Origin: Patescibacteria group bacterium
GTDB lineage: Bacteria; Patescibacteriota; Patescibacteriia; Buchananbacterales; UBA6539
Assembly (NCBI GenBank): GCA_034003985.1
Contig: JAVEXP010000001.1
Span: 68,924 to 132,923, forward strand
Length of the DNA: 64,000 nt
Direction: 5' to 3'
In this document: positions 47,339 to 54,620 of the stretch, one piece after another
Numbering within the stretch: position 1 is the stretch's first letter
Layout of the letters: the number at the start of each line of letters is the position of its first letter
The notes under the pieces: generated by a model
Databases searched by the model: none
Told to the model about the DNA's origin: nothing
Seen by the model: the letters and a program-made list of their open reading frames with translations, nothing else
Translations under genes and position numbers: made by a program

Positions 47339-48064
47339 TTAATAATTTTTTTGGTATTTTGGCGCCGGTCGCTCGTTGGGATTAATTATTTTTTGGGATT
47401 TTTGAGCAAGCTTGATTTTCTTTTGTTCCATTCGATATATCCCAATCATAAAGAATACCCCGGCCAAAACTAGGCCGATTATCAGGTAAGTGGTCGGTAG
47501 CGACCCCAAAAAAGCAATGGTTAGACAGAAGGGGATTAGTCCCAGGAGAGTGGCCCAGAAAAAAGTTTTGGTTTCCACTCTGGTTATTAATCCCAATACA
47601 TAACTTAAGCCGTCAAACGGTGTTACCATTCTTAAGAAAAAGATTGTCCAAAAGATATTTTGATTAGGAATCAGCTTTTCGATTTTTTCTATTTTTTTGA
47701 GCGGTATGATTTTGGCGATGTGCGGCCGACCAAATCGCCGAGCAATATTAAAAGCAATCAGCGCGCCGATTGTCCAACCAATGGTGGACAGCACCGTGGT
47801 CATACCAATGCCCCATAATTTTGTCCCCATGGGGATTAGGGGCATTGAACTGATGGGGATTAAAACAATCGAAAGAATGAATATCAGAATATATAGCAGC
47901 ATCCCGGTTAGCGATTTCAGGCCAATGACTTTTTGGATGTCGGTTTGATAGCTGTTGAAGATATATGACGAAATCAGGAACAAAATGGCGATAATTAGGG
48001 TTGAGGAAACAATTTTAATTTTTTCTTCTCGGTTTTTTTGCCCAAACTCATTGAGGATTTTCAT
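47339..48064 (-). CDS. TVP38/TMEM64 (DedA superfamily) membrane protein
   Basis: The topology and the 'FLRMVTPFDGLSYVLGL' re-entrant segment are typical of YdjX/TVP38. Confidence 0.55.
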   Translation of the reverse strand: MKILNEFGQKNREEKIKIVSSTLIIAILFLISSYIFNSYQTDIQKVIGLKSLTGMLLYILIFILSIVLIPISSMPLIPMGTKLWGIGMTTVLSTIGWTIGALIAFNIARRFGRPHIAKIIPLKKIEKIEKLIPNQNIFWTIFFLRMVTPFDGLSYVLGLITRVETKTFFWATLLGLIPFCLTIAFLGSLPTTYLIIGLVLAGVFFMIGIYRMEQKKIKLAQKSQKIINPNERPAPKYQKNY

Positions 48065-48965: not shown

Positions 48966-48994
48966 TTGACAGTCTTTTCTTGATATGATAATTT
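48966..48994 (+). promoter_or_regulatory. Promoter-like repeat copy P3
   Basis: It is TTGACA preceded by the same 'gctgttttttcttttc' leader as P2. The -10 is weak ('tatgat'/'taattt'). Confidence 0.35.
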
Positions 48995-49041
48995 GGATTG
49001 AGTTCTGGTAACATAGCTGACAACATAGGAGGAAACAGGAT

Positions 49042-49284
49042 ATGTCTACCAAGGCACTTTGGTGTATCAGTTTTAACGACGGTACTTCCGTTGAGGTACG
49101 AGGCTCAAGCAAGCGCAATGCTGACAATCAGGCTTGCGCGAAGGCTGGCAAGACTCATCGCGAGATCTGTTCTCGGGGCGTGGTTTGTGGCAAGCCTCAC
49201 AACGGAAAACGAAATCGATCAAGACATTCCGGTGTAGTACATCCTTGCGCCAGCCCCCTGTCCCGTTGGGGTTGGCACTACTAA
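49042..49284 (+). CDS. Hypothetical 80-aa basic Cys/His-containing protein in a GC-rich islet
   Basis: RBS 'TAGGAGGA' lies 8 nt before the ATG. The product begins 'MSTKALWCISFNDGTSVEVRGSSKRNADNQACAKAGKTHREICSRGVVCGKPHNGKRNRSRH'. Confidence 0.45.
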   Translation: MSTKALWCISFNDGTSVEVRGSSKRNADNQACAKAGKTHREICSRGVVCGKPHNGKRNRSRHSGVVHPCASPLSRWGWHY

Positions 49285-49314
49285 GCTTTCGCCCGTGTTC
49301 GTTTTTACCGGCCT

Positions 49315-49344
49315 TGTCTGGACTGCCCCACGATCGCGTCGCGG
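49315..49344 (+). terminator. Putative terminator
   Basis: Hairpin 'ccccacga-tcgcg-tcgcgggg' followed by a T8 run. Confidence 0.45.
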
Positions 49345-49371
49345 GGCTTTTTTTAGTAAAAAAATAACCTG

Positions 49372-49387
49372 GCACTAAAATGTGTTA
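49372..49387 (+). repeat. Core-site copy c1 ('gtgttaagtaatgtat') at the left edge of the cassette array
   Basis: It matches cores at 49867, 51088 and 52684, and their inverted copies at 50494, 52151 and 53229. Confidence 0.5.
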
Positions 49388-49864
49388 AGTAATGTATCTT
49401 TTTTCTTAAAAATTTGATTTTTTTGTTTTGAGAAATGAAAGAGGGGTTAGGGGGTGAATTTTATTTTTCAAAATTCCTTTTTAGCTTTTCTTATGAAAGT
49501 ATTTTTGGATCAAACAACCTATGAACGCGAAAAATAATCCAGAGCTGAGGAAGGTGATGATAACGACTCCCGCCACATCATCATTTGGGTTTAGATATTT
49601 CAATGCTGCTATCGCCCCACCAGCAAACACTTCGCCAAAGATAAAACCAGGTCTGTTTCGTGATTTTCAACCTCATTAAGTATAAATTCTCTTATTTTAG
49701 TGTAATTTTTATCCATATAGACATTGTAAACCCCTAAAATTTACATTGTAAACCATGTAAGTTTTAATAAAAAACAAGACCAAGGTCTTGGAGGAAAAGC
49801 ATATTTCATATAACGTTTCGGCATATACGATGTTGCGTTAGCAATATAGGCGAAGCGAAGCGTA

Positions 49865-49893
49865 GCCGTATATGCCGTGTTAAGTGATGTATG
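49865..49893 (+). repeat. Core-site copy c2 ('ccgtgttaagtgatgtatgacgagggcgg'), inverted partner of c3
   Basis: It lies directly 3' of the hydrolase cassette. About 21 of 27 positions match rc(c3). Confidence 0.55.
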
Positions 49894-49905
49894 ACGAGGG
49901 CGGTT

Positions 49906-50493
49906 TTAAGAGAGAATTGGTTTCAACTTTTCTAATAATAAATCAAATTTTGTATAACCTGCCTTGGTGTTGAAATGTCCTGCGTTCGGCACAAAATTTA
50001 GTGCCACTTTTAAGTTCTTCGCCAGCAATTCGCCATTTCCTAATGAGACATATGGATCATCGTCGGATTGGAAAACTTCAAAATGATGAGCTTTTGTAGA
50101 TATGGTTTTCCAATCAAATAAAAATCCGTTAAAACTACTGTCTCTGTCATAGTTTAAAATAGGGCGAACTCCAATAGGGGTGCCTACAAAAATAGCTGCT
50201 TTAACTGGATGTGCTAATTTTTCCAATATGCGGAGGGTAAAAATACCTCCCAAACTATGCCCGATTAAAATAGTATTTTCATCGAAATGTTGCTCGTAAT
50301 TTTTAAGAACATCAAACCACTCAGCTATTTTTGCGGGCACCACTGGTGGCGAAGGAAACTGTGGCACTAAAACATTATATCCTTTTTGTTCTAACTCTTG
50401 TTTTAACCAAGGAAACCAATTCTCTTTTGGATGGCCTTCAGTGCCGTGTATTATAAATATATTTTTCATATAGTTGTTGTTAGCCTTCGTCAT
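49906..50493 (-). CDS. Alpha/beta hydrolase, YdeN/RBBP9-like serine hydrolase
   Basis: 'IFIIHGTEGHPKENWFPWLKQELE' and the nucleophile elbow 'IGHSLGG'. Confidence 0.75.
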   Translation of the reverse strand: MTKANNNYMKNIFIIHGTEGHPKENWFPWLKQELEQKGYNVLVPQFPSPPVVPAKIAEWFDVLKNYEQHFDENTILIGHSLGGIFTLRILEKLAHPVKAAIFVGTPIGVRPILNYDRDSSFNGFLFDWKTISTKAHHFEVFQSDDDPYVSLGNGELLAKNLKVALNFVPNAGHFNTKAGYTKFDLLLEKLKPILS

Positions 50494-50607
50494 ATTTCAC
50501 TTAACGTTTTGGGCTAGCCGAAGTTTCGTTTGAACGTTGTGGTATAATTTGTGCGGAGCGCTACCATATAAGTGAAAACGAAATTTGGGTGAGCGCGCTA
50601 AATAAAA
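50494..50607. repeat. Intercassette repeat (long type, 114 bp) carrying inverted core c3
   Basis: It is homologous over about 135 bp to 52150-52293. It is internally palindromic ('tttcacttaacg...cgttttcacttat'). It contains 'ACGTTAAGTGA' on the minus strand. Confidence 0.55.
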
Positions 50608-51054
50608 TTATTCGCAACCCCAGCCATCATTATCTCGGTCAAGTCCAAAAACATCTGGACCAAGAACTTTTACTTTGCCTGTGTAATATGGGCCATTGCC
50701 GGAACCGCCAGCACAATCGTAATCGCTAGCGTTTGCTTTTAAGCATCCAGAATAGCTGGGATGGCAGTTTTGTTGCGCAACCGTGGCCGGTTTAGGAACA
50801 GGTTTGGGATCGGGTTCTATGGCAGGTTCTGGTTTTGGTTCAGGAACAACATAAGTTTTCTGAGGTTGCGGAGTTGGTTTAGGCTCGTCCTGGTTTTCTG
50901 CTATTGGTTCTGATTCTAAGGATTCTGGTGTTTGATTATATTCAACCTCAGTGCCTAAAACTTCACCATCAGTGCTAGATTGTAAGTTTGTTTGAGTTGC
51001 GCAACCGGAAAGAAAAAGAATTGAAATTAGCGCTACATTGATTAAGATTTTCAT
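50608..51054 (-). CDS. Secreted lipoprotein with C-terminal Excalibur calcium-binding domain
   Basis: 'ILFLSGCATQ' is the lipobox. There is a Pro/Glu-rich linker. The C-terminal 'DRDNDGWGCE' matches Excalibur DxDxDGxxCE. The ATG at 51054 is preferred. Confidence 0.65.
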   Translation of the reverse strand: MKILINVALISILFLSGCATQTNLQSSTDGEVLGTEVEYNQTPESLESEPIAENQDEPKPTPQPQKTYVVPEPKPEPAIEPDPKPVPKPATVAQQNCHPSYSGCLKANASDYDCAGGSGNGPYYTGKVKVLGPDVFGLDRDNDGWGCE

Positions 51055-51111
51055 AATTTTATTTAGCAAGCGCGAACCGGCTAGCCCGTGTTAGGTGATG
51101 TAAATCCGATT
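51055..51111. repeat. Intercassette repeat (short type, 57 bp) carrying core c4
   Basis: 'attttatttagcaagcgcgaaccggctagcccgtgttaggtgatgtaaatccgattc'. It is homologous to 52645-52699. Confidence 0.55.
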
Positions 51112-52149
51112 CTACAAAATTTCAAATTCATGTTCTTTGTTGTCCTCGACTATCTTAAGGAACTCATCGAATTCATTTCTTTTTTTATTGATAATATTTT
51201 CTAAAACATCGATTTTCAAATCCCTCAATCCTGTCGGCATGTTTGGGTCTAAATCATAACCTAGCAGGAAAATGTCGACGACTTTTATGTCATGATTGTG
51301 TCGTTCTATAATTCCCTTATACCCTAATATTTGACCAATATGATCAGCCTTGATTTTAACAGATGGCCGTTTTAATTCGACTAATACAACATGGTTAGAA
51401 TCTTGTAAGAACATTTTTACAATTAAGTCTGGTCTCTTACCGAGCTCGGGGTCGTCTTCTAAATTTTTGTCGAGATAATCGCTCAAGGTTTTGTCACTTC
51501 TAACTAGATCATAGTTATTATCCAAGAGCCACAAATTTTTTTCTAACAACTTATGTATCTCTCTTTCCTTCGTATCCTTTTGTTTAATAAGGTGCCCAAG
51601 TAGTTTAATAAGTGATATCTTTTTTCTTACCAACTCAGCTATTGTGCTGATCTGTCCTATTCTGAGCTCATTCAAAATTGCTACAAAATTGTCCAATTCG
51701 TCATTTTTAGCGTCTGACAATTGTTTAAGAAGAAAGTCGACATTTTCTGCCTTAATTTCATAAACTCTAACCGCTAATTTATCTAAAGCCTCGAAGCTAG
51801 CCTGAGATAAGCCAGCTACATTTTTATTTGAGAGGATCTTTTGAAGAAAATCAGGGTTACTTGCAAGTATCTCATTTAGGTTGTGAAGTACTTCTTGTTC
51901 CGTTGAATATTTAGTACTTGTTGGCCACTGATGGTATTGGTATGTTTCAGATTCGATGAGTTCCTTAAGATGATTCCAATCATCCAGGTATAAATTAAAT
52001 TTGCCAGTTTTCTCTGGATGACCGGTATGTACTCTTTCTAGGATAATATAGTTGCGATCTTGATGTTCTCCGTCACCAATTACTGCCAGCGTTGTAATGC
52101 CACTTTTCCAGGCTTTTGTGACTTTCTTTAAAAGTTTAAATTTTGTCAT
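51112..52149 (-). CDS. PD-(D/E)xK nuclease-fold protein, DUF4263/Shedu-like candidate
   Basis: 'RPDLIVKMFLQDSNHVVLVELKRP' fits PD...(D/E)xK. The upstream 'EREIHKLLEKNLWLLDNNY' resembles the helix preceding DUF4263 nuclease cores. The gene is flanked at both ends by a 26/28-identical inverted repeat. Confidence 0.5.
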   Translation of the reverse strand: MTKFKLLKKVTKAWKSGITTLAVIGDGEHQDRNYIILERVHTGHPEKTGKFNLYLDDWNHLKELIESETYQYHQWPTSTKYSTEQEVLHNLNEILASNPDFLQKILSNKNVAGLSQASFEALDKLAVRVYEIKAENVDFLLKQLSDAKNDELDNFVAILNELRIGQISTIAELVRKKISLIKLLGHLIKQKDTKEREIHKLLEKNLWLLDNNYDLVRSDKTLSDYLDKNLEDDPELGKRPDLIVKMFLQDSNHVVLVELKRPSVKIKADHIGQILGYKGIIERHNHDIKVVDIFLLGYDLDPNMPTGLRDLKIDVLENIINKKRNEFDEFLKIVEDNKEHEFEIL

Positions 52150-52293
52150 AGAATCGGATTTATGTCACCTAACGTATCGGCGTATCTGAAGTTTGGTTGG
52201 AGTAATCTGCTATAATTGCGCGAAGCGTCAGCAGATTGCGGAAACCGAATTTGGGCGAAGCGAGCGTTAAGAATAAAATATATATTTATGAAA
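52150..52293. repeat. Intercassette repeat (long type, 144 bp) carrying inverted core c5 and an internal 8-bp-stem hairpin
   Basis: 'gaatcggatttatgtcacctaacgtatcgg' is rc-homologous to c4. The hairpin 'aatctgct...agcagatt' is at 52204-52237. The tail 'cgaatttgggcgaagcgagcgttaagaataaaat' matches the 50577-50607 tail. Confidence 0.55.
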
Positions 52294-52644
52294 TTATTTA
52301 TTATCAAGAGAATCTAAAAAATTTTTAATGTTGGCTAAATGTCTTTCTTCTATCTTTTTTATTGAGTATATTTTAATTGAATCATGTTCGTATGAATAAG
52401 CGTCTGGTGGAATTTCTTTTGGCTCATATTTAGTTTTATCCTTTTCTTTAAATTTTATTTCGCCATTTTCTACGGTGTAGATTTCTCGACTAAGCCAACC
52501 TTGTTTTTGTGAACTATCTCTGTATATATAAATTTTTTTAGATTCCACGTCCAAAACACACATATTGACTTTTCGTTTTAGTTGTTGAGAAAGTGTAATC
52601 TTTTTAACTAACTCAACATTTGCAGATGTTGGGAAAGATTTCAT
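52294..52644 (-). CDS. Hypothetical 116-aa protein
   Basis: It has an ATG and is Lys-rich, with no recognisable motif. Confidence 0.4.
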   Translation of the reverse strand: MKSFPTSANVELVKKITLSQQLKRKVNMCVLDVESKKIYIYRDSSQKQGWLSREIYTVENGEIKFKEKDKTKYEPKEIPPDAYSYEHDSIKIYSIKKIEERHLANIKNFLDSLDNK

Positions 52645-52736
52645 AAATATATATTTTATTTAGCCCGCGTAGCCAGATACGCCGTGTTATATGATGTAAT
52701 AAAAAGCTATACTATTTCTAAAATAATTTTGGCAAT
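52645..52736. repeat. Intercassette repeat (short type) carrying core c6 ('gtgttatatgatgtaa')
   Basis: It aligns with 51055-51111 through 'TACATCA..TAACACGG...CGCG..GCTAAATAAAAT'. Confidence 0.5.
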
Positions 52737-53084
52737 TTATTTCAGATCCTTGTTATTTTTAGTGTTCGGATTAGGTCCATATTTATTTTGATCCGGCTCG
52801 CTGTCTGATGCCAAACGTATAATAAGCCACCATGGTGCAAATATCGACCAGCCACTTTTTCCAGTATCGTGTAATCTTCTAATTAAGACTGCTATCCATG
52901 GTGTTAGCGTTGCTAAAAAAAATAAATACCCAAGCATGCTCTCACTATCTCCGATAATGTAACCAATGAATTCAAGAGCAAAAAAAATCAAGTAATTAAA
53001 TAACGTAAAATACCAAAATTCGGCTTTCGTTGATCTCCCAGTAAATTGAGCGTATTTTTTCAAACCTAGAATGTAGTAGTTCAT
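52737..53084 (-). CDS. DUF805 family membrane protein
   Basis: 'RRLHDTGKSGWSI' is the DUF805 signature. It has 3 TM helices. Confidence 0.7.
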   Translation of the reverse strand: MNYYILGLKKYAQFTGRSTKAEFWYFTLFNYLIFFALEFIGYIIGDSESMLGYLFFLATLTPWIAVLIRRLHDTGKSGWSIFAPWWLIIRLASDSEPDQNKYGPNPNTKNNKDLK

Positions 53085-53228
53085 ATTGTTTTAAAATAAA
53101 TTACCAAAATTATTAATGAATTAAAGAGGCTTTTTGTTATGTCATATAACTACTATTATACGAACTTTGTTGATTTTTTGTTGAAATTAAGGTAAAATTT
53201 AAGCACCAACATAGCGCCTATAACCTAG

Positions 53229-53241
53229 TTACATCCTAACA
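53229..53241. repeat. Inverted core copy c7 ('gttacatcctaac'), 20 bp upstream of the recombinase start codon
   Basis: Its rc 'gttaggatgtaac' matches the 'gttaggtgatgtaa' core family. Confidence 0.4.
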
Positions 53242-53260
53242 AATAACTGGAAAAAATGCT

Positions 53261-54085
53261 ATGTTTTTTGATGCCTTAAAAAAAGAGCTAGAAATTCGCA
53301 ATTTAAGCGAAAAGACAGCCAGGGCTTATCTGTATTATAATGGTGATTTGCTTAAATTCTGCAAAAAAACACCCGAATCAATTAAGGAATTGGATATAAA
53401 AGAGTATGTTAGACATTTGGTTGTGGAAAGGCGGGCTTCGGCTTCGACTGTCAGACTGGCTTTGAATGCTTTAAAATTTTATTACTCAAATATTAAGAAA
53501 CGCCGGTTTGATTATCTTTCTAAGGCGGTGTTGCCTAAAAAACCAAAAAGGTTGCCGGTGGTTTTATCTAAATCCGAAGTGGCAAAATTGTTAAGTTGCG
53601 TTGTCAACAATAAACATCGGTTAATTTTGTCGCTGATGTATTCTTCCGGCTTGAGAGTTAGTGAAGTTGTAACTTTAAGAACTCAGGACTTTGATTTGGA
53701 AAATAAAATTTTGTGGGTTAGACAGGGTAAGGGCAGAAAGGATCGACGAACAATCATTGCTGAAAAGTTAATTGATGATTTAAATCAATTGATCAGCTGT
53801 AAAGAAGTTGGTGATTATATTTTTCCCAGCCAGGATGGGATTGGACATCTTACCGCCCGAACAGCAGAAAAGATTTTTCAATCCGCACTGGTTAAATCAG
53901 GAGTCAAGAAGGAAGCGACATGCCATAGTTTGCGCCATAGTTTTGCCACTCATCTTTTGGAAGATGGGACTGATATTCGTTATATTCAAAGTTTGTTGGG
54001 ACATCAAAGTTTAACAACTACTCAGATCTATACCAAAGTGAGCAGTGGGCATTTAAGTCAGATCAAATCACCATTTGATTGTTAG
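53261..54085 (+). CDS. Tyrosine site-specific recombinase (XerC/XerD-like integrase)
   Basis: It has an N-terminal SAM-like domain. The C-terminal 'HSLRHSFATHLLEDGTDIRYIQSLLGHQSLTTTQIYTKV' contains the catalytic R-H-R-Y residues. Confidence 0.85.
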   Translation: MFFDALKKELEIRNLSEKTARAYLYYNGDLLKFCKKTPESIKELDIKEYVRHLVVERRASASTVRLALNALKFYYSNIKKRRFDYLSKAVLPKKPKRLPVVLSKSEVAKLLSCVVNNKHRLILSLMYSSGLRVSEVVTLRTQDFDLENKILWVRQGKGRKDRRTIIAEKLIDDLNQLISCKEVGDYIFPSQDGIGHLTARTAEKIFQSALVKSGVKKEATCHSLRHSFATHLLEDGTDIRYIQSLLGHQSLTTTQIYTKVSSGHLSQIKSPFDC

Positions 54086-54323: not shown

Positions 54324-54620
54324 ATGCCCGGTAGAATATATTATGTTTATTTAATGGTAAACAAGACTAATACGGTAGTTTATACAGGGGTGACAAATAA
54401 CCTGAGACGACGAGTTTTTGAACATAAGAATAAGTTAGTTAAGGGGTTTACCAGTAAGTATAATGTGAATAAATTGGTTTATTTTGAAGAAACTGAAGAT
54501 GTGTCCACGGCAATTTTTCGTGAAAAACAGATTAAGGGTTGGTTAAGAATAAAGAAAATTAAGTTAATTCAAACACGAAATCAGGGGTTTAAGGATTTAA
54601 GTGAATATTGGTATGATTAA
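54324..54620 (+). CDS. Stand-alone GIY-YIG nuclease domain protein (UPF0213-like)
   Basis: 'YYVYLMVNKTNTVVYTGVTNNLRRRVFEH' carries the GIY..YIG and R..E motifs. Confidence 0.75.
   Translation: MPGRIYYVYLMVNKTNTVVYTGVTNNLRRRVFEHKNKLVKGFTSKYNVNKLVYFEETEDVSTAIFREKQIKGWLRIKKIKLIQTRNQGFKDLSEYWYD

Follow-up and report, generated by a model that had tools for sequence, protein, structure and literature searches.

A Shedu-like nuclease gene as cargo of a probable integron-like cassette array in a Patescibacteria group bacterium

Organisation of the locus

The window, the whole 64,000-nucleotide stretch analysed here, comes from a contig of a Patescibacteria group bacterium and contains an array of minus-strand genes: a DUF805 gene and genes for a protein of no known kind, a nuclease, a lipoprotein and a hydrolase. 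A tyrosine recombinase gene diverges from them. Each gene of the array has GTTRRRY before it and a matching RYYYAAC after it, and the L'' and L' stems keep fixed offsets from these R boxes. The intergenic elements are hairpins of 78 to ~600 nt; scans of the whole window gave no Rfam match and no tRNA. The initial annotation had guessed that the nuclease gene (gene X) rides in a cassette array, and this was correct: the array is integron-like, and gene X belongs to one of its cassettes.

Cassette Z (52173-53149, minus strand) carries the DUF805 gene (52737-53084). Its attC site, also on the minus strand, consists of R'' (52686-52692), L'' (52674-52683) and L' (52179-52188), with a loop branch that holds a further gene, Y (52294-52644). 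The predicted bottom-strand fold of 52167-52692 has a z-score of -4.5 and contains both the R and L pairing and the gene-bearing branch. A similar arrangement is found in cassette X, whose predicted complete mobile unit (50505-52172, minus strand) begins at the T that follows the G of its R' box and ends at the G of the next. The attC site of this cassette (50505-51096, minus strand) comprises R'' (51090-51096), L'' (51078-51087), L' (50511-50520) and the final G at 50505; on the same strand its interior has an inner hairpin (50521-50586) and a loop branch with gene W (unit 50597-51067). In the bottom-strand fold, the minimum free energy structure and the centroid both contain the paired R boxes, a bulge of 3 nt, the L stem, the inner hairpin and the branch that carries W.

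Cassette V (49814-50504, minus strand) encodes a serine hydrolase (49906-50493) and has a simple 78-nt attC site (49808-49885). For this site the bottom strand gives the more stable fold, at -16.1 (z -3.8) against -12.4 (z -2.3) for the top strand; a 3-nt bulge separates the R and L stems. When the junction of cassette V is circularised the predicted fold reaches -31 kcal/mol (z -8.4), and a second circularised junction reaches -67.8 kcal/mol (z -15.3). The last cassette, U (49379-49813, minus strand), is degenerate and has the trailer motif TTCACCCCCTAACCCCTCT at 49440-49458.

The recombinase and the adjoining junction

The tyrosine recombinase (53261-54085, plus strand, 274 aa) is IntI/XerA-like and contains the Pfam domains PF13495 and PF00589. 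It scores 232.5 bits against the integron integrase model TIGR02249, in two stretches and with a model cutoff of 265, and 229 bits against the XerA/integron integrase model NF040815, which is over the cutoff of 220; the XerC and XerD models give 187 and 181. Aligned with IntI1, it keeps the catalytic residues RKHRHY and is missing an insertion of ~31 aa and a stretch of 10 aa. The IntI-specific additional domain (IntI1 ~197-235) is thus absent from the window recombinase, and likewise in 17 array loci. Passages of PMC9668308 and PMC2426708 that cite Messier & Roy 2001 describe this domain as necessary for IntI1 activity. The missing domain counts against the integron reading.

Between the recombinase gene and the array lies an attI-like junction (53151-53260, minus strand) with a Pc-like promoter, TCAACA-18-TATAAT (53184->53155). 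This site, a consensus match only, stops 4 nt short of the GTT of the first cassette and points into the array. The junction is conserved in the window and at two other loci (L008 and L010), and partly at three more (L061, L060 and L021). Inspection of the junction by eye found no dif-like 11-6-11 site.

The inverted repeat around the nuclease gene

Gene X is bracketed by an inverted repeat with arms at 51090-51114 and 52149-52173. The repeat had been described as a perfect match of 26/28 bp; both length and perfection were overstated, the arms being 25 nt long and complementary at 23 of 25 positions (92%). The two extra outer bases assigned to each end (GT.. and ..GT) are unpaired. At up to 3 mismatches the arm pattern occurs at only two places in the window, whereas shuffled sequences lead one to expect 0. 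The repeats do abut the gene, as had been stated: the TAG stop codon (51112-51114) falls within the trailer arm, and the final base of the leader arm is the A of the ATG (52149).

What are the arms made of? Read from the outside in, each has a 7-nt R' or R'' box, 6 nt conserved across cassettes and 12 cassette-specific nt. The leader arm (52149-52173, minus strand) consists of the R' box GTTAGGT (52167-52173), the conserved GACATA and the cassette-specific AATCCGATTCTA, which extends to the start codon. The trailer arm (51090-51114, minus strand) consists of the TAG stop codon, the cassette-specific AATCGGATT, the conserved TACATC and the R'' box ACCTAAC (51090-51096). In the inner 12 nt, leader and trailer are reverse-complementary up to the start and stop codons, and position 11, within the conserved 6-nt extension, is a fixed A.C mismatch. 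The repeats had been taken to bound a precisely excisable module; instead, one is R' plus leader and the other trailer plus R''. The inverted repeat of cassette X marks neither transposon ends nor excision points.

Homologues of the nuclease outside cassettes offer a comparison. At six loci from a protein look-up, all in non-cassette contexts, flanking-repeat scores did not exceed the 95th percentile of shuffles (the window copy scores 48), and the repeat was absent from 37 further metagenomic loci in non-cassette contexts, where one high score came from an AT-rich low-complexity repeat. The notion that the repeat belongs to the gene family was rejected on account of these 6 + 37 homologues. 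A partial 15-nt complementarity reaching into the coding ends (51114-51128 and 52132-52146) was judged not significant, because homologues keep the peptides and not the DNA pairing and because the sequence is AT-rich. A separate 21-nt perfect inverted repeat lies within the coding sequence (51152-51172 paired with 51951-51971); it is unique to the window copy, and codon shuffles gave at most 14 nt.

The cargo protein

Gene X (51112-52149, minus strand, ATG start) encodes 345 aa, and the translation contains both motifs quoted from the start, 'EIHKLLEKNLWLLDNNY' and 'RPDLIVK...HVVLVELKRP'. The N-terminal ~190 aa are unclassified and are followed by a nuclease core at ~193-335. In an alignment of 22 homologues E195, H199, D241, E258, K260, Q273 and Y277 are invariant, among them the D, E and K residues (D241, E258 and K260) whose conservation had been proposed as a check. 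For the proposed DUF4263 similarity the SduA matches are weak. Protein X matches SduA_C (PF14082) with E 2e-5 and the PADLOC SduA model with E 5.8e-4; the SduA_C score of 25.3 bits, however, is under the Pfam gathering score of 27, and the match covers only positions 2-57 of the 159 in the profile. Within the family, 19 of the 22 members match SduA_C at E<=0.01, with a best value of 2.3e-6. The nuclease reading also draws on a match of aa 140-279 to NF050001, whose members combine GHKL and DUF4263 (E 1.5e-10).

An AF2 model has a C-terminal pLDDT of 75-92 and an alpha-beta-beta-beta-alpha-beta order there, the restriction-endonuclease core order that had been anticipated; at full length the model is mediocre (pLDDT 69). 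As modelled, protein X has the PD-(D/E)xK fold with the full catalytic set and resembles the SduA nuclease domain in structure. A sequence search of the PDB with the family profile gave no significant match. The architecture is that of type 1 Shedu, a single gene with an N-terminal region before the nuclease, and no conserved partner gene was found across the homologue contexts examined.

By its sequence features, protein X is classed as a divergent type-1 Shedu-like nuclease with a DUF4263-type C-terminal core and all catalytic residues. Most likely it would act as a stand-alone DNA-cleaving defence effector restrained by its N-terminal domain. The anti-phage role is proposed from homology and from the defence-related or mobile surroundings in which homologues lie; their neighbours include a TIR-TPR protein, methyltransferases, SMODS/SLATT and HepT. 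Neither cassette X nor the array has a methyltransferase, cassette X has no antitoxin-like gene, and no gene of this kind (methyltransferase or partner) was found that would account for host tolerance of the nuclease.

Recurrence of the design in other arrays

The same cassette design is found at three further loci (L008, L009 and L010), where it includes a 6.9-kb type I R-M cassette, and leader/trailer pairing occurs in arrays beside recombinase relatives in several phyla. A generic scan found 38 pairs versus 2 in shuffles. Past the first 13 nt the arms are cassette-specific: positions 14-24 pair with their own trailer in 52-74% of cases, against 25-32% for other trailers. At each of the 17 loci examined, the short recombinase and the conserved junction directly abut the array; no second, classical IntI was found near these arrays, the short recombinase being the sole IntI homologue within 10 kb.

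A homologous cassette at another locus (L095, 68% aa identity) keeps both leader and trailer; both arms have changed at positions 5, 9 and 19, and positions 10-11 are still mismatched. Between these two complete homologous cassettes, the only such pair available for covariation, pairing is kept by compensatory changes. Cargo common to the arrays, on which a wider covariation test would depend, was almost nil by tblastx. Positions 10-11 form C.A/A.C mismatches on the coding strand and G.T/T.G wobbles on the bottom DNA strand, and this polarity mismatch is oriented alike in all 25 oriented cassettes. Outside positions 10-11 there is no strand bias of wobbles (20 versus 18), and 51 transversions are found. 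The arms could be decaying copies rather than finely selected pairs. Leader and trailer sequence families recur across cassettes with different cargo.

Alternative explanations

Could the arms be the terminal inverted repeats of a MITE-like non-autonomous transposon that carries the nuclease and is served by a transposase elsewhere? A 25-nt repeat closely brackets a single gene, and the leader and trailer families recur with differing cargo. However, there is no target-site duplication, no direct repeat lying outside the arms (flanks ...CGATAC and ACGGGC...), the arms have no further copy in the window and the array has no transposase. Moreover, the outer 7 nt are R' and R'' boxes of a form common to neighbouring cassettes, followed by attC-type hairpins, and the polarity mismatch has one orientation throughout the oriented cassettes, which makes a transposon extremely improbable. 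Inversion of genes by the adjacent tyrosine recombinase, giving on/off phase variation of cassettes, is very unlikely as well: inverted sites are substrates for inversion by such enzymes, the conserved 13-nt box of each arm is a candidate enzyme-binding site and one cassette at locus L008 has an oppositely oriented ORF, but the genes are almost uniformly co-oriented in all arrays, homologous loci showed no allele in the opposite orientation, and attC hairpins together with direct-repeat-like successive R' boxes predict excision.

A role of the complementarity in RNA, as an RNase III site, in mRNA stabilisation or in masking of the ribosome-binding region, would suit arms that span exactly the untranslated leader and trailer up to the start and stop codons, and a promoter-like site directed into the array; compensatory change is also expected from selection on RNA. 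Yet it is positions 10-11 of the coding strand that are mismatched, with wobble pairs on the bottom DNA strand, and G.U-compatible changes on the coding strand are not in excess (18 versus 20). The arms also run on from the R boxes, sites at which DNA recombines, and the nested genes sit in branches of attC hairpins for whose L and R stems no role in RNA is obvious. This explanation seems rather improbable. The cargo itself might be read differently, as a solitary restriction-type nuclease (an HgiDII-family module) or a toxin-like nuclease that stabilises the array, and not as a Shedu-type defence effector. The best curated sequence match of protein X is indeed NF050001, the GHKL + DUF4263 restriction-enzyme family of BbrUII/HgiDII (E 1.5e-10, 40.3 bits, aa 140-279), one homologue (L002) lies near two DNA methyltransferases, and chromosomal integrons are known to hold stabilising toxin cassettes (PMC13108822). 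Against this, the score of ~40 bits compares with a cutoff of 550, the alignment involves the C-terminal half of protein X and reaches only profile positions 429-573 of 659, and profile searches of the protein found no GHKL/HATPase domain. The cassette has neither a methyltransferase nor an antitoxin-like gene, and Gu et al. (PMC10441436) place GHKL + DUF4263 proteins themselves in type 1 Shedu. A restriction or toxin function is thus considered unlikely.

Proposed mechanism and implications

The region is probably a chromosomal integron-like cassette with Shedu-like cargo, in which the repeat is part of the recombination architecture of the cassette. We infer that the adjacent short IntI-like recombinase is active, presumably on a single-stranded substrate, and that crossover would take place at the G|TT of consecutive R' boxes. 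Since this is where integrons cross over, the mobile unit would measure 1668 nt rather than the 1084 nt enclosed by the repeat; excision would release a circle (52172-50505) that includes the attC site with its nested second gene. In this circle the trailer, attC site and leader would form one continuous hairpin. Neither an excised circle nor an empty site or a rearranged allele was seen.

Defence genes are already known as integron cassette cargo, and a defence nuclease in a cassette is one more such item, as expected. An integron variant with a short recombinase and leader/trailer pairing appears to be undescribed; a literature search found nothing specific on integrons in Patescibacteria/CPR or on pairing beyond the R boxes. 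A possible, if somewhat doubtful, extension is that the array represents an unrecognised integron lineage, whose short IntI/XerA-like integrase lacks the additional domain and whose substrate would be the long trailer-attC-leader hairpin. Genes would then occupy hairpin loops and sometimes be nested inside attC loops. As leader and trailer modules recur with different cargo, the arrangement could in that case record how cassettes are made, by capture of genes into hairpin modules that already exist. The arrangement is seen in MAGs of Patescibacteria, Peregrinibacteria, Spirochaetota and Bacillota, and relatives of the recombinase are also found in DPANN archaea.

If such a lineage exists, it could account for many attC arrays of archaea and uncultured bacteria that now count as 'orphan' (CALINs). 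If short recombinases without the additional domain serve attC arrays, an entire lineage, found in the candidate phyla radiation and other groups with little sampling, escapes the working definition of an integrase (IntI = PF00589 + intI_Cterm), and numerous arrays regarded as lacking an integrase would have one. The compensated leader/trailer pairing offers a structural rule that can be tested. Two possibilities follow from it: the recombination hairpin of the excised cassette may be longer, or the pairing may be a zipper that joins the cassette's two attC sites. Since single-strand excision becomes less frequent as cassettes get longer (PMC5371416), a zipper could explain how the 6.9-kb cassette stays mobile. 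The rule also bears on how cassettes originate.

Comparison with known systems

Protein X resembles Shedu (SduA) in its weak but reproducible SduA_C matches and in being the product of a single gene with a non-nuclease N-terminal region; its relatives include proteins with a GHKL ATPase N-domain, like some Shedu proteins, and its homologues sit in defence or mobile islands. It differs in that its N-terminal ~190 aa fit no known Shedu sensor family, in its RecB/Cas4-type QxxxY motif and in an SduA_C match below the gathering score that spans the first third of the profile. In contrast to BbrUII/HgiDII (NF050001), it fails the full-length cutoff, and has no N-terminal GHKL ATPase and no cognate methyltransferase alongside.

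As in classical integrons, a tyrosine recombinase gene of the window diverges from the array, the junction is conserved and has a promoter-like site facing outward, and the genes are co-oriented, unrelated and promoterless; the hairpins are imperfect, with R''/L''/L'/R' boxes and conserved AAC/GTT, and favour the bottom strand. The cassette cargo includes R-M systems and the Shedu-like nuclease, and sedentary chromosomal integrons likewise carry defence systems (bioRxiv 10.1101/2024.07.02.601686). The differences from classical integrons are that the recombinase has no IntI-specific additional domain, that some attC loops enclose an entire gene, and that the cassette ends pair along the entire leader and trailer (17-92 nt), well past the 7-nt R boxes and with a conserved mismatch at position 11. 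In aadA1 of R100, the single classical cassette compared, complementarity of the ends tails off beyond ~12 nt.

Are these elements closer to Xer/dif systems, such as those of XerA and XerS/difSL? The window recombinase passes the NCBIfam XerA model (229 > 220 bits), and gene-sized modules between inverted recombinase sites are the hallmark of the pdif modules of Acinetobacter plasmids. However, dif sites are identical, 28 bp long and built as 11-6-11, and the modules that they flank alternate in orientation, whereas the sites of the window are hairpin-forming attC-type elements with cassette-specific arms. The recombinase also does as well against the integron integrase model (232 bits) as against XerA (229), and better than against XerC/XerD (187/181).

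CALINs are clusters of attC sites without an integron integrase (IntegronFinder, PMC4889954), and archaeal attC arrays are mostly found without a recognised IntI (539 attC sites versus 6 IntI; PMC9668308). Current tools would probably label the array of the window a CALIN, since the recombinase next to it does not pass intI_Cterm. With a conserved IntI-like recombinase and junction abutting the array at every one of the 17 loci, the array does not look orphaned.

The flanking inverted repeat and its cassette

The nuclease gene X (51112-52149, minus strand) lies between two complementary arms, at 51090-51114 and 52149-52173. The initial annotation described this inverted repeat as a 26/28-bp perfect match; it exists, but it is 25 nt long and 23/25 positions are complementary. 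It does abut the gene as claimed: the TAG stop lies within the trailer arm (3' of the gene), and the last base of the leader arm (5') is the A of the start codon. No further copy is found in the 64-kb window, where the number of matches expected by chance is 0. The outermost 7 nt of the arms are the R' and R'' boxes of X's own cassette, the next 6 nt (GA(C/A)ATA versus TACATC) are conserved across cassettes, and the innermost 12 nt, AATCCGATTCTA / TAGAATCGGATT, are particular to X. Arm positions 10-11 are non-complementary alike in the cassettes of Z, X and V.

What surrounds X? Between 49.4 and 53.15 kb, this Patescibacteria MAG carries small unrelated genes, every one on the minus strand: Z (DUF805), Y (unknown product, 52294-52644), X, W (a lipoprotein with an Excalibur motif, 50608-51069), V (serine hydrolase) and a last, degenerate unit, U. 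On this strand a GTTRRRY box begins Z, X and V, and an exactly complementary RYYYAAC box comes after (GTTATAT/ATATAAC in Z, GTTAGGT/ACCTAAC in X and GTTAAGT/ACTTAAC in V). From each R'' the sequence runs through 2 nt and a 10-nt L'' stem to a variable region, then through the complementary L' and 5 nt to the next R', as in an integron attC site. The cassette array proposed earlier is borne out. The proposal of a module excised between the repeat ends is not supported: integron rules put the crossover at G|TT in consecutive R' boxes, which predicts 52172-50505 as the mobile unit.

The simple attC of V is predicted to fold at -16.1 kcal/mol on the bottom strand (z -3.8) versus -12.4 on the top strand (z -2.3), with a 3-nt bulge separating the R and L stems. 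The variable loop of the X attC bears gene W on a branch shut by W's own 15-nt perfect inverted repeat (unit 50597-51067, repeat starting GCTAAATAAAAT), and gene Y is likewise carried in the attC loop of cassette Z (unit 52266-52664, with a 23-nt perfect inverted repeat also starting GCTAAATAAAAT). Folded as bottom strand, the two regions show this nested architecture in MFE and centroid structures alike. At the corresponding spot the V attC is uninterrupted (CTACGC|TTCGCTTCGCC).

A promoter-like TCAACA-18-TATAAT faces into the array, ending 4 nt short of the first cassette, and the junction between recombinase and array is conserved across related loci. The far end is bordered by a gene for a VTT-domain membrane protein both in the window (47339-48064) and at the comparison locus L008 (3187-3831), which suggests that the array is sedentary, at a conserved chromosomal position. 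The distal end also contains a GC-rich stretch of ~380 nt (48990-49375) with an 80-aa ORF (49042-49284) preceded by a strong Shine-Dalgarno sequence and, on the plus strand, an intrinsic-terminator-like hairpin (49325-49347) followed by a T run; Rfam gave no match in this stretch.

A short recombinase

Divergent from the array, at 53261-54085, lies the gene for a tyrosine recombinase. It scores 229 bits against the XerA/integron-integrase model NF040815 (above the cutoff of 220) and, in two stretches, 232.5 bits against the integron-integrase model TIGR02249 (cutoff 265). Aligned with IntI1 of plasmid R100, the enzyme keeps R146, K171, H277, R280, H303 and Y312; the ~31 residues of the additional domain (IntI1 ~197-235) are missing, as are 10 others. 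It is the sole IntI1 homologue within 10 kb in 17/17 array-bearing loci. Surveys have defined IntI by the additional domain (PMC2426708), so the arrays described here would score as integrase-less despite abutting a conserved recombinase and junction. In archaea, 539 attC sites have been reported versus only six IntI (Ghaly et al., PMC9668308).

The short recombinase has widespread relatives without the additional domain (loci L011-L090, 39-53% identity) among CPR bacteria and DPANN archaea (Nanoarchaeota, Woesearchaeota, Pacearchaeota), and others in Spirochaetota, Bacillota and further groups. In the Spirochaetota and Bacillota loci the recombinase gene comes first and the cassettes follow downstream of it. 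Immediately downstream of the window recombinase is a GIY-YIG nuclease gene (98 aa, 54324-54620).

The nuclease

The 345-aa ORF is present with both motifs quoted in the initial annotation. In profile searches, Pfam SduA_C (PF14082) matches at E 2e-5 over profile positions 2-57 of 159 (25.3 bits, a little short of the gathering score of 27), and the PADLOC SduA model at E 5.8e-4. The top NCBIfam match, far under its cutoff, is the BbrUII/HgiDII restriction-enzyme family NF050001 (E 1.5e-10, residues 140-279). Database searches found ~32 full-length relatives, all of about 345 aa (36-69% identity), and more distant proteins of ~590 aa that combine HATPase_c_3 with SduA_C and match NF050001 at 1e-42 to 1e-46. 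SduA_C is matched at E<=0.01 by 19 of 22 aligned family members. Across all 22, E195, H199, D241, E258, K260, Q273 and Y277 are invariant: a complete PD-(D/E)xK signature plus a QxxxY motif. Over its whole length the AlphaFold model is only mediocre (pLDDT 69), but the C-terminal half is good (75-92) and shows the expected strand/helix order.

Shedu has been defined as any DUF4263 protein; in type 1 Shedu the N-terminal domain belongs to one of 79 families, GHKL ATPases among them (Gu et al., PMC10441436). Given this definition, the profile matches, the catalytic signature and the model, the family is read here as a divergent Shedu-like nuclease of type 1 whose N-terminal region is unclassified, and which would act as a Shedu-like defence effector. 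Homologues lie beside two methyltransferases (L002), a TIR-TPR protein (L004), integrases with SMODS and SLATT genes (L092), a serine recombinase island (L093) and a large helicase with a HepT toxin (L094); these neighbourhoods are consistent with a defence role, short of proof.

A perfect 21-nt inverted repeat also lies within the X coding sequence (51152-51172 / 51951-51971, encoding HLKELIES and EFDEFLKI), where codon shuffling reaches a maximum of 14 nt. It is not found in six homologue genes, though both peptide motifs are kept, and hints at a process perfecting quasi-palindromes in the cassette-borne copy.

Maintenance and recurrence of the complementary ends

Flanking complementarity was found neither at six X homologues in non-cassette contexts nor at 37 further metagenomic loci of X homologues. 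The closest homologue, P0002 (68% identity; locus L095), is also a cassette, with homologous leader and trailer. Between the two, arm positions 5, 9 and 19 have changed together on both arms and positions 6 and 8 on one arm alone, and the 10-11 mismatch is preserved. Since unconstrained non-coding DNA should be randomised at this protein divergence, the arms are maintained, through selection or concerted evolution. Arm mismatches outside 10-11 comprise wobbles without strand bias (20 versus 18) and 51 transversions, which counts against fine tuning. The close homologues at L096 (2620-3657), L097 and L147 (a 105-aa C-terminal fragment) keep a cassette-type trailer (..TTTACATCAGCTAAAAC) and attC, and have a strong TTGACA-17-TATAAT promoter where the complementary leader would be.

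The same design occurs in arrays adjoining close recombinase relatives (L008, L009, L010), in every case with a 5' leader that is the reverse complement of the stop-to-R'' stretch, over 17-92 nt. Examples are an Eco47II restriction-methylase pair in one 2.3-kb cassette (L008 4634-6961) and an entire type I R-M system (hsdR, hsdM, hsdS plus a DUF8370/8371 gene) that makes up one 6.9-kb cassette, with ends complementary over ~77 nt (L010 1775-8669). In 1.12 Mb of retrieved loci, which include Peregrinibacteria, Magasanikbacteria, Spirochaetota and Bacillota MAGs, a generic scan found 38 such leader/trailer pairs versus 2 in shuffles. Cassettes chosen solely by arm positions 1-13 still paired at positions 14-24 with their own trailer in 52-74% of cases, and with other cassettes' trailers in only 25-32%. 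The leader always has A at position 11 and the trailer C; on the coding strand these two mismatch, and on the bottom strand they form a T.G wobble.

The motif TTCACCCC(C/T)..AACCCCTCT is found at window 49440-49458 and in the trailers of the Eco47II and type I R-M cassettes, and its complement, AGAGGGG, in leaders of the same cassettes. This recurrence with unrelated cargo suggests that cassettes share leader/trailer modules.

A possible mechanism

The analysis shows how the array is built, that this design recurs, that the arms have changed in compensating fashion, and how the DNA is predicted to fold. In the mechanism proposed here, the short recombinase would excise and insert cassettes at G|TT via folded single strands. 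What might the long pairing contribute? Fusing trailer and attC with the leader of the same cassette mimics an excised circle, and an unbroken hairpin is then predicted: V gives -31 kcal/mol (z -8.4) and cassette 1 of L010 gives -67.8 kcal/mol (z -15.3). The pairing may lengthen and insulate the attC hairpin of the circle. Alternatively, it may zip a cassette's two ends to each other in single-stranded array DNA, bringing its two attC sites into contact. Excision depends on cassette length (Loot et al., PMC5371416), a dependence that zipping, if true, would offset.

Comparison with classical integrons

Integron cassettes are already known to carry defence systems (bioRxiv 10.1101/2024.07.02.601686), and the diversity of Shedu is known too, so a Shedu-like nuclease in an integron-type cassette falls, as a finding, within known kinds. 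For the missing integrase domain, the long leader/trailer pairing and the nested genes, no description was found in the searchable literature, which is incomplete. In aadA1 of R100, the single classical cassette examined, terminal complementarity is gone after ~12 nt. In contrast to classical integrons, the window array adjoins an integrase without the additional domain, its leader/trailer complementarity extends far past the R boxes, and some of its attC loops have genes nested within them.
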